Shown: positions 15,487 through 17,360 of the stretch, piece by piece
Numbering within the stretch: the stretch's first letter is position 1
How the letters are laid out: each line of letters starts with the position of its first letter
Source of the DNA: a virus
DNA: 37,909 bases
Virus genome (UHGV): UHGV-0127965
Reading direction: 5' to 3' (one strand)
Program-made: the position numbers and the translations under genes
The notes under the pieces: generated by a model
The model's database searches: none
Told to the model about the DNA's origin: nothing
The model's input: only the letters and a program-made list of their open reading frames with translations

Positions 15487-15671
15487 ACGCCACAATTCAA
15501 ACGATACCAGAGCTTCTTATCCAGACACGAGGCAATCAGACCGAAGTGGCAAGGATGCTTTCCTGCGCAAGAGGAACAGTGCTCAAGTACAACCGAGACA
15601 GCAAAGGCGAGCGCCACGTAATAGTTAACGGCGTCCTGATGGTCAAACAGGGCAAGAGGGGAAGACGATGA
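15483..15671 (+). CDS. ninH: NinH-like protein
   Basis: TIPELLIQTRGNQTEVARMLSCARGTVLKY resembles lambda NinH. Confidence 0.7.
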   Translation: MNATIQTIPELLIQTRGNQTEVARMLSCARGTVLKYNRDSKGERHVIVNGVLMVKQGKRGRR

Positions 15672-16156
15672 GCATAAGAGAAATAAACCTCACCAAAGAA
15701 CAGCACGATTGGCTGAATGGCTGGCTTGAACTGTGGGGCGCATGGGTTTATTCAGGTCGTCTGGAAAAGCGCATGAGCAGCGTAATAGCTAAGTTCATGG
15801 AGAGCGTAGAGCCGGGAAGAGTTATGACAAGGCCAATGTGTAATGATGATGATGGAATGTTGATTTCTCAGGTCGTCGATTCCGTCATGTACATTGACAA
15901 GAAAGCCTTTGGCATCCTCCTCAGCTACTACGCTCATGGATCTTCCAAGCATGCCATTGCATCTTACTATCATCGTGTCGCAAGACCTCGCAAGATGTTA
16001 TGCCGGGGCGGCGGGCGTATTCAAAAACCATCGCTCGCAACCTGTCGCCGGGAAGTTGACGAAATCCTCAATGCCTCGTTGTTTATGATTTACCAGGTTC
16101 TGGATAGTGCGTTTAAAAATCGGAAACGTGTAGAGAAAATTAAACATGTAGCATAG
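15668..16156 (+). CDS. Q: Late antiterminator Q-like protein, 162 aa
   Basis: Last gene before the lysis cassette; reminiscent of short phage-21-type Q proteins; assignment is positional plus weak recollection. Confidence 0.55.
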   Translation: MSIREINLTKEQHDWLNGWLELWGAWVYSGRLEKRMSSVIAKFMESVEPGRVMTRPMCNDDDGMLISQVVDSVMYIDKKAFGILLSYYAHGSSKHAIASYYHRVARPRKMLCRGGGRIQKPSLATCRREVDEILNASLFMIYQVLDSAFKNRKRVEKIKHVA

Positions 16157-16200
16157 AACGTGTTGACATCATTGAGCAAATGAGCAACACTATTCGCATA

Positions 16201-16243
16201 AGCTGCCGTTAGTGACTCTTAAGTTGCAACGGTGGCTTTTTTT
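16201..16243 (+). terminator. tR'-like intrinsic terminator downstream of Q
   Basis: 10-bp stem AGCTGCCGTT / AACGGTGGCT (two G-U pairs) then T7; a TTGACA -35-like hexamer lies just upstream at 16163-16168. Confidence 0.55.
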
Positions 16244-16247
16244 ATTT

Positions 16248-16322
16248 GGGTCAGTCGTATAAAGGTCATTACGGAAGGCTGTTAACCTTCTTATCGTGGT
16301 TCGAGTCCACGCTGTCCCGCCA
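16248..16322 (+). tRNA. tRNA-Asn (anticodon GUU)-like gene
   Basis: Hand-folded cloverleaf: acceptor GGGTCAG/CTGTCCC (6 of 7 pairs), U8, D-loop with GG, anticodon stem GAAGG/CCTTC with loop CTGTTAA, T-arm CGTGG-TTCGAGT-CCACG, discriminator G, encoded CCA. Confidence 0.55.
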
Positions 16323-16603
16323 AACATGCTGGTTTAGCTCCAATGGTAGAGGTGGTAAATGCCGAGCAAAGATTACTATCTTAATCGAAGGGCTAGGCTT
16401 GCTAAGGCCGTGGAAAAGTTGGGTGGTCGTTGCGCGAGTTGCGGATCCGAATACTAATGGTCTAGTTATTTCAGACATATTCATCAATTTCAGGCTCACG
16501 GGAATCATCCGCTACGTGCTTTGTTGATAAATCCAGCCCGTGAAGCCTGACCCTTTTCAAACACACACACACAGCGCCATCCGAAAAATCGGAGGTGAGG
16601 CCT

Positions 16604-16927
16604 ATGAAAATGCCATACAAACAAGATTTCATCGCTGCGCTACTTGCCGCCAAGGAGCAGGGTATTGGTGCAATGCTGGCTTTTATCATGGCGTATCTGC
16701 GTGGTCGCTATAACGGCGGCGCGGTAACAAAAACGCTAATTGATGCGCTGATGTGCGCGATGATTGCCTGGTTCGTTCGTGACCTTCTGGACTTTATCGG
16801 CCTGAGCAGCAACCTCGCCTACATAGCCAGCGTCTTTATTGGATACATCGGCACCGATTCGATCGGCAATCTTATTAAAAAACTTGCAGCAAAAAAGGCG
16901 GGAGTTGACGATGCAAACCAGTCCTGA
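16604..16927 (+). CDS. S: Class I holin (lambda S-like) with dual-start MKM motif
   Basis: [39 protein letters not shown]... closely resembles lambda S; GGAGGTGAGG RBS; the track's GTG start lies upstream. Confidence 0.9.
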
Positions 16928-17360
16928 CGGAATTGCTCTGATAAAAAAATTTGAAGGTTGTCGGCTGACTGCTTACCCCGACCCCGGAACGGGAGATGCG
17001 CCGTGGACCATCGGCTATGGCTGGACCCATCCGGTTGACGGAAAGCCAGTAAAGCGCGGTATGACTATCGACCAGCAAACCGCTGACAGGCTTCTGAAAA
17101 CAGGGCTTGTTGGTTATGAGAATGACGTGCTGAAAGTTGTCAGGGTGAAGCTGACACAAGGCCAGTTCGACGCACTGGTGTCGTTCGCTTACAACGTTGG
17201 GTCGCGTGCTCTTTCCACATCTACACTGCTGAAAAAGCTGAATGCTGGCGATATAAAAGGCGCGGCAGATGAATTTCTGCGCTGGAATAAATCAGGCGGA
17301 AAGGTGATGCCGGGGCTCACGAATCGCCGCAAGGCAGAGCGAGCTCTGTTCCTGTCATGA
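16911..17360 (+). CDS. Endolysin (GH24 lysozyme, P22 gp19 type)
   Basis: [18 protein letters not shown]...GYG...[11 protein letters not shown] is a T4/P22-type lysozyme; ATG inside track ORF 16839..17360, overlapping the holin end. Confidence 0.9.

Follow-up and report, generated by a model that had tools for sequence, protein, structure and literature searches.

What occupies the gap between the Q antiterminator gene and the holin gene of this phage, and where in it does late transcription begin? We addressed these questions for positions 16157 to 16603 of a 37,909-nucleotide virus genome (UHGV-0127965), the whole of which is referred to here as the window. The window, most closely matched by IME10, HZ41, and APC_JM3.2, represents an E. 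coli phage or prophage of the P22-like kind, and the interval is bounded on the left by the Q gene (15668-16156) and on the right by the holin gene (16604-16927). A first-pass annotation made from the letters alone had noted in this interval a tRNA, an (AC)6 tract, a fragment resembling a tRNA arm, a TTGACA hexamer, and a terminator hairpin, all of which are present. It had also left about 240 bp unexplained, and considered the late promoter and qut site not clearly located.

We put at roughly 0.88 the probability that the gap, in what is a P22-like E. coli phage, consists of the late-gene control region of a phage 21-type Q module, with decay products and the leader of the lysis genes behind it. 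The core of this arrangement, the phage 21-type control region plus tRNA-Asn, is already known; phage 21 is among the best-studied antitermination systems, and the module is known to carry this tRNA as an accessory gene. Hence, the outcome is mainly a correction, in that the late promoter, the Q binding site, and the terminator can be placed to the base through identity with phage 21. The gap also provides a small, clear example of turnover between Q and S in lambdoid phages, where tRNA genes come and go. Here, a selfish nuclease gene entered a tRNA pair and a deletion then removed the nuclease gene, while the holin-proximal leader stayed constant and acts as the junction between unrelated modules. 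Features open to experimental testing are limited to the leader hairpin, the variation in (CA)n, and a conserved U4.U69 mismatch in the tRNA.

Late promoter, Q binding element, and terminator

A BLAST search of 16157-16603 against phage genomes found 100% identity to coliphage 21 over the first 195 bases (16157-16351); the same stretch is shared at 98-100% identity with a large number of lambdoid and P22-like phages, among them SfI, JLK-2012, phi458, Sf6, and BTP1. The annotation of phage 21 was taken from the curated GenBank record OL657228.1, window coordinates being those of the extracted locus (L001) plus 14656. The following features could be placed.

15668-16156, + strand: Q antiterminator gene of the Q21 type; 158/162 amino acids identical to phage 21 Q; Pfam PF06530, E = 1e-24
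16163-16168, + strand: -35 hexamer TTGACA of the late promoter pR'; 100% identical to the 'minus_35_signal pR' late promoter' of OL657228.1
16171-16186, + strand: Q binding element (QBE, the qut DNA site), a direct repeat of ATTGAGCA and AATGAGCA; QBEu and QBEd in the phage 21 record
16186-16191, + strand: weak -10 hexamer AACACT of pR', separated from the -35 by a 17-bp spacer; transferred from the phage 21 record
16198, + strand: late transcription start (+1); phage 21 misc_feature 'transcription start site for late promoter'
16199-16205, + strand: sigma-dependent pause element (SDPE) TAAGCTG, +2 to +8; phage 21 response_element SDPE
16200-16247, + strand: intrinsic terminator tR', with hairpin 16200-16238 and U7 tract 16239-16245; annotated in phage 21

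The encoded Q protein shares 98% identity with Q21 and matched the Q21 crystal and cryo-EM entries PDB 6p18 and 6jnx at E ~ 1e-106. A Q cassette is described as running from the Q gene through the promoter, a promoter-proximal pause element, and the terminator into the late genes, and the role of the pause element in it has likewise been described (bioRxiv 10.1101/651190). The window follows the same layout, with a Q21-family gene upstream, tandem QBE subsites, and a promoter-proximal pause and terminator. The QBE, ATTGAGCAAATGAGCA, comprises two tandem 8-bp subsites lying between the promoter hexamers and is both exact and unique in the window (16171-16186); in phage 21 the two subsites are bound by two Q21 protomers (bioRxiv 10.1101/651190; PMC8022706). 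The Q21/pR'21/QBE/SDPE/tR'21 region is covered by Yin, Kaelber, and Ebright 2019. Folded as RNA, the tR' hairpin reached -20.2 kcal/mol (z = -4.75), a stability matched by none of 200 shuffled sequences. The phage 21 record also cites Guo, Kainz, and Roberts 1991 (PMID 1704887).

These placements bear directly on the late promoter, since the TTGACA at 16163 had been set aside as too close to the terminator to be pR', yet the identical TTGACA is annotated in phage 21 as the -35 of that very promoter. The objection was in fact backwards, because tR', which here falls within the first 50 nt of the late transcript, belongs close to the promoter in a Q cassette, a promoter-proximal terminator being what defines that layout. 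Far from being poorly located, pR', QBE, +1, SDPE, and tR' are all mapped by 100% identity to phage 21. That the late promoter instead lies elsewhere in the interval, the TTGACA being fortuitous, is in our judgment highly improbable. The -10 (AACACT) is admittedly poor, and a scan of 15600-17000 for consensus promoters and terminators flagged neither pR' nor tR'. However, the same scan returned no other promoter-like site within 16157-16603, the phage 21 pR' region is identical base for base, including the QBE between the hexamers, and the tRNA-Asn gene directly abuts the terminator. The scan is uninformative for so weak a -10, and the loop limit of the tool may explain the missed hairpin; the result reflects a limit of consensus scans rather than the absence of either element.

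Promoter, start site, and Q dependence are thus transferred from phage 21 by sequence identity, and on that basis events at pR' would proceed as follows. Sigma-70 RNA polymerase would initiate at 16198 and pause at the downstream pause element. When Q is absent, transcription would terminate at tR' to yield a transcript of ~50 nt, whereas two Q protomers bound to ATTGAGCA and AATGAGCA would load onto the paused polymerase and allow it to read through tR'. As with lambda 6S RNA and the StxS small RNA, the combination of a constitutive promoter and an immediate terminator would give a short RNA in a lysogen here too; that of the window would be only ~50 nt and almost all hairpin. We know of no Hfq binding or target for this RNA. 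Short RNAs from the late promoters of phages 21, phi80, 82, and P22 have been reported (PMC7547250).

Within the Q gene, the minus strand at 15980-15993 reads TTGCGAGGTCTTGC (reverse complement), which fits the pattern TTGYN6TTGY and corresponds to the place in the phage 21 Q gene where the record puts a CII binding site and the paQ antisense promoter.

tRNA-Asn(GUU) and the remnants of a second tRNA

Beyond tR', the interval contains one intact tRNA gene and, behind it, a series of remnants that were recognized by comparison with relatives.

16248-16322, + strand: tRNA-Asn(GUU) with encoded CCA, G73 discriminator, and a U4.U69 mismatch; ARAGORN and Rfam
16328-16351, + strand: 24-nt 5' stub of tRNA-Thr(UGU), comprising the acceptor strand and D-arm, a pseudogene; identity to phage 21, Sf6, and EC2001
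16359-16457, + strand: truncated HNH endonuclease gene of 32 codons, closed by a new stop; 32/32 amino acids equal the N-terminus of WP_001568783.1
16452-16453, no strand: point at which 1037 bp of the KL53-type arrangement are deleted, marked by a 2-nt TA microhomology; alignment to the KL53 prophage (L004)
16455-16486, + strand: spacer found in KL53-type prophages only, with no recognized feature; comparison with relatives

The tRNA-Asn(GUU)-like cloverleaf, originally folded by hand, is a real gene: ARAGORN called tRNA-Asn(gtt) at 16248-16322 as the single tRNA of the entire window, and Rfam RF00005 matched it at 55.3 bits (gathering score 29, E = 5e-11). It was also the sole Rfam match at E <= 10 between 15900 and 16900, where neither the stubs nor the holin leader resembled a known RNA family. 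Phage 21, Sf6, and SfI carry exactly this tRNA sequence, and among diverged homologs compensatory changes were found in every stem. The D, anticodon, and T stems are all altered yet paired in one such type (L009/L035), and acceptor pairs 6:67 and 7:66 are swapped in the Mulock tRNA. Because these differences are fully compensated, the cloverleaf is under selection. G73 and the GUU anticodon are identity elements for AsnRS; both are present in the sequence, and the tRNA may be charged with asparagine.

As the tRNA begins at the base after the terminator U-tract, a promoter of its own is hardly possible, and it is presumably made only when Q carries polymerase past tR'. It would then be the first read-through product, excised from the late transcript by the tRNA-processing enzymes of the host. 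Stx phages carry the tRNA genes ileZ-argN-argO at the 5' end of the late operon. For these, a separate promoter has been mapped (PMC7547250); the start of the window tRNA at the base after the terminator makes an equivalent unlikely here. AAC makes up 55% of Asn codons in window ORFs, which is no bias and points to no clear benefit of the tRNA; the authors describing SfI reached the same conclusion. Downstream of Q, tRNA-Asn occurs alone or with tRNA-Thr or tRNA-Leu in phages 21, Sf6, SfI, ST64T, PS3, and L (PMC9119081, PMC8022706, PMC3636060), and the late-operon tRNAs of the P22-like and lambdoid phages Sf6, SfI, L, ST64T, and PS3 occupy the same site just after Q, pR', and tR'.

The U4.U69 mismatch in the acceptor stem (16251 and 16315) is kept in 12 distinct homologous tRNA-Asn sequences, among them two tRNA body types with differences in almost all of the remaining stems. 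In unrelated phage tRNA-Asn genes that end in CCCGCCA, positions 4 and 69 pair normally.

The Asn(GUU) plus Thr(UGU) pair is present in Sf6 and SfI, whereas in the window Asn alone survives. Past 16351, which falls within the 76-nt tRNA-Thr(UGU) of phage 21, Sf6, and E. coli EC2001, identity to these three is lost. Coliphage 21 presents the same order of elements (-35, QBE, -10, start, pause element, terminator, and tRNA-Asn), with a Q that is 98% identical, and a full tRNA-Thr where the window has one cut after 24 nt; farther downstream, the S21 pinholin of phage 21 has its counterpart in a lambda-type class I holin, preceded in the window by an HNH stub and by a leader unlike that of phage 21. 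The full 76-nt cloverleaf of tRNA-Thr is absent, only nucleotides 1-24 being present, and neither ARAGORN nor Rfam made a call. The fragment that had been likened to a tRNA arm, AGCTCCAATGGTAGAG (16336-16351), is a genuine one, equal to the D-arm of the phage 21 tRNA-Thr(UGU) and a remnant of that gene. In window ORFs of at least 100 codons, ACA accounts for 30% of threonine codons (159/529); the loss of tRNA-Thr(UGU), which reads this codon, despite such usage indicates that the tRNA is evidently dispensable.

Seven nucleotides past the tRNA-Thr stub begins the gene whose full-length form encodes WP_001568783.1, a 141-aa HNH endonuclease of the E. coli KL53 prophage. A remnant of the D-arm, GAGGTGG (16349-16355), serves as ribosome-binding site both for the window stub and for the KL53 HNH gene. 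The full-length protein carries Pfam HNH PF01844 at residues 66-79, whereas the window retains residues 1-32 only; the stub ORF has no Pfam match and the HNH catalytic motif is missing. Alignment with the KL53 prophage (L004) located the loss precisely: window 16100-16453 corresponds to L004 2501-2854 at 99.2% identity, and 16452-16607 resumes at L004 3890-4042. The same junction spacing was found in ECONIH5 (L006), H82 (strain C 236-04A), and L038, which carry the deleted allele, while L004, L009, L029, L030, and L035 have the full-length HNH allele. Removed with the remainder of the HNH gene were a 3' stub related to tRNA-Gly(TCC), a terminator-like hairpin, and a small reverse-strand ORF, and the deletion junction itself created the stop codon of the 32-codon ORF.

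Comparison with relatives shows that a free-standing HNH gene replaced everything past nucleotide 24 of tRNA-Thr(UGU), thereby destroying the second tRNA of the ancestral pair. The 1037-bp deletion came later, taking most of the HNH gene and the DNA behind it and leaving a nonfunctional remainder. We see hardly any likelihood that the 32-codon ORF (16359-16457) is instead a functional small protein retained on purpose. It does have a good ribosome-binding site and an ATG, it lies inside the late transcript, and the same deletion allele recurs in at least four genomes. Yet it is the exact N-terminus of a longer enzyme, cut ahead of the catalytic HNH motif, its stop arose from the deletion junction, and the allele is rare, the full arrangement being present in 2 of 5426 complete E. 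coli genomes.

By sequence comparison, then, the 240 bp once regarded as unexplained are made up of four identifiable pieces, namely the tRNA-Thr stub (16328-16351), the HNH gene stub (16359-16457), the deletion scar (16452-16453), and the conserved holin leader (16487-16603). The statement that this stretch lacks a convincing ORF was sound, the 32-codon stub being the sole meaningful one.

A group I intron or split tRNA was considered for the HNH gene in tRNA-Thr and rejected. Since the ORF begins 7 nt past the 5' stub and extends to the 3' stub, a ribozyme would not fit, and the break falls in the D-arm rather than the anticodon loop. Paired by hand, the KL53 5' stub (Thr) and 3' stub (Gly-like) match at 5/7 acceptor positions, and the two derive from different tRNAs.

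The KL53 3' stub, deleted in the window, follows immediately on the HNH stop codon (L004 3186-3223). Its acceptor strand equals that of the tRNA-Gly(TCC) of Met-?-Thr-Gly clusters, while its T-stem differs (AGAGG/CCTTT vs GCGGG/CCCGC); such mixed acceptor and T-stem matches indicate that the HNH cassette is flanked by pieces of two or three tRNAs. Met-?-Thr-Gly clusters themselves contain a gene reported by ARAGORN as 'tRNA-?(Leu|Pro)(ag)', the anticodon loop of which is abnormal (L047 4098-4171, L049 6915-6988, and L051 7253-7326). It looks like a decaying tRNA-Arg, its acceptor and D-arm matching the tRNA-Arg(TCT) of another relative (L011). Also absent from the window is a minus-strand ORF of 56 aa at L004 3661-3831, with two CxxC pairs, a hydrophobic C-terminus, and a terminator-like hairpin before it, which may be an accessory gene ("moron") in the Q-to-S gap of KL53-type prophages.

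The phage collection contained no close relatives of the HNH protein (none above 60% identity) and only distant homologs, two of which were inspected, both from large lytic phages and both located inside or beside tRNA genes. The homolog of phage JohannJBalmer (L067 1501-1935) is embedded in a tRNA array and shares 21 nt at its 3' end with the start of tRNA-Lys; in phage Forrest (L068 1501-1873), the ORF ends 8 nt ahead of tRNA-Lys. Like the HNH genes in the tRNA arrays of large lytic phages, the HNH gene of the intact relatives sits among tRNA sequences, with the 5' stub of a tRNA-Thr on one side and a tRNA-Gly-like 3' stub on the other. To our knowledge, no cleavage activity is known for the HNH relative. 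T4 SegB is likewise a free-standing homing endonuclease in a tRNA gene cluster, although a GIY-YIG enzyme where the window relative is HNH (PMC2330249). Unlike SegB-type systems, the flanking tRNAs were here destroyed by the insertion, and the nuclease gene of the window amounts to 32 codons.

A conserved leader before the holin gene

From 16487 onward, the sequence belongs to the lysis cassette.

16487-16603, + strand: conserved 5' leader of the lysis cassette, ~117 nt; 74-100% identical in more than 60 loci
16490-16550, + strand: leader hairpin of 13 bp with one bulge and a conserved 34-nt loop; 16490-16502 pairs with 16537-16550
16561-16573, + strand: dinucleotide repeat (AC)6A, or (CA)6, in the untranslated leader; exact (AC)6 match at 16561-16572
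16580-16593, + strand: small hairpin UCCGA-AAAA-UCGGA, the 3' arm of which overlaps the ribosome-binding site GGAGG (16591-16595); minimum-energy fold
16604-16927, + strand: lambda-family class I holin with a Met1-Lys2-Met3 dual start (ATG 16604 and ATG 16610); Pfam PF05106, E = 8.5e-30

Relatives of the leader were found in prophages of E. coli, Salmonella (Gifsy-2), Klebsiella, and Citrobacter, mostly beginning right after the T-tract of the upstream terminator. What precedes it varies, from no tRNA to Asn, Asn+Thr, Arg+Gly, or Met+?+Thr+Gly, or reverse-strand genes. Downstream, at least two unrelated holin families (PF05106 and HP1/P21-type) join it at the start codon. Across relatives (window 16487-16612; loci L007-L055), leader, ribosome-binding site, and spacing are unchanged in front of both MKMPYKQ... 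(PF05106) and MTRMSTIY... (HP1/P21-type), and the families diverge at the ATG or 1 nt before it, a very sharp mosaic junction.

The leader folds at -38.2 kcal/mol (z = -3.4). The helix of the leader hairpin was retained in the RNAalifold consensus, with 91.6% of cells paired and double changes at 4 pairs; in the small hairpin, 93% of cells were paired, 3 pairs showed double changes, and the closing pair switched from A-U to U-A in 5 sequences. Taken together over 32 sequences, 92% of cells in the two hairpins were paired and 7/18 pairs showed double changes, a score reached by none of 500 shuffles. Between the hairpins, the middle of the leader is predicted to be a single-stranded C/A-rich stretch containing the repeat. 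The window contained neither a further copy of the leader hairpin nor any other notable repeat. A coding role for the leader was rejected: 2-nt indels of the CA repeat shift every frame, and the 'hypothetical proteins' annotated there differ between records.

Given this conservation, the leader could be more than a passive segment between modules and act as a cis-regulatory RNA that sets the amount or timing of holin through processing, stability, or ribosome access, with (CA)n tuning the time of lysis, an idea that we regard as unlikely. Its persistence before two unrelated holin families in four host genera speaks for it, as do the double changes at 7 pairs, the shuffle result, and the fold z score, and Chris1 and Kp4864 have acquired the hairpin domain without the 3' part. 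The leader was also more conserved than synonymous holin sites in two comparisons (96% vs 76%; 74% vs 61%). In two others, however, it did not evolve more slowly than those sites, the adjoining holin gene being more conserved than the leader; recombination breakpoints fall between leader and holin there, and such mosaicism accounts for the split outcome. Support for a selected structure is modest, most pairs being invariant and the loop as conserved as the stem. Moreover, recent recombination between lambdoid phages could account for much of the leader identity, the leader has no Rfam counterpart, and changes in the CA repeat affect no predicted pairing. Quite improbable, in our view, is the more ambitious proposal that hairpin, slippage-prone (CA)n spacer, and SD-occluding hairpin form an undescribed cis-regulatory RNA module of many enterobacterial lambdoid prophages, in which (CA)n length would create heritable, fast-evolving variation in holin translation and lysis timing.

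The holin gene opens with the dual-start sequence ATGAAAATG (16604-16612), and the identical protein in relatives is named 'phage holin, lambda family' by RefSeq. In lambda, the structure termed sdi sets the holin/antiholin ratio (PMC3359269). Lambda S likewise encodes a PF05106 holin with a Met-Lys-Met start and a 4-5 bp hairpin whose 3' arm lies in the Shine-Dalgarno sequence. The lambda hairpin, CCCC-UUAUU-GGGG, occupies the same place as that of the window, although the sequences are unrelated and the distance from hairpin to first ATG is 10 nt in the window vs 7 in lambda. The small hairpin is therefore best read as an analog of sdi, and by partly covering the Shine-Dalgarno sequence it probably determines the relative use of the two holin start codons in the same way. 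Unlike in lambda, the hairpin and Shine-Dalgarno sequence also precede an unrelated, MTRM-start holin family.

Variation in the (CA)n repeat

The (AC)6 tract noted upstream of the holin ribosome-binding site was exactly as described, unique in the window, and found in 0/100 shuffles. A comparison of its length among relatives, which the first-pass annotation had proposed, returned n = 2-7 across 53 relatives (n = 2, 6 relatives; n = 3, 4; n = 4, 27; n = 5, 12; n = 6, 3; n = 7, 1). The value of n differs even between leaders with 98-100% identity elsewhere, being 6 in the window, 5 in ECONIH5 (L006), and 7 in another relative (L053). Repeat length thus outpaces point mutation, as slippage predicts, and in an unstructured CA-rich stretch it would drift by replication slippage.

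Such polymorphism among near-identical leaders, in a tract far beyond chance, is what a phase-variation (contingency) switch would display, and repeat number does vary among close relatives as at a contingency locus; nevertheless, we consider a switch very unlikely. The tract is not placed where it could switch expression, being outside any ORF and away from any spacer between promoter hexamers; instead, it lies ~18 nt upstream of the SD and is unpaired in the predicted fold. Tracts are also short, with 4 units in the commonest allele, and the interrupted alleles ACACGCACA and ACATACACA persist. The simplest reading of (CA)n is a neutral microsatellite, although its length might have an effect on translation.
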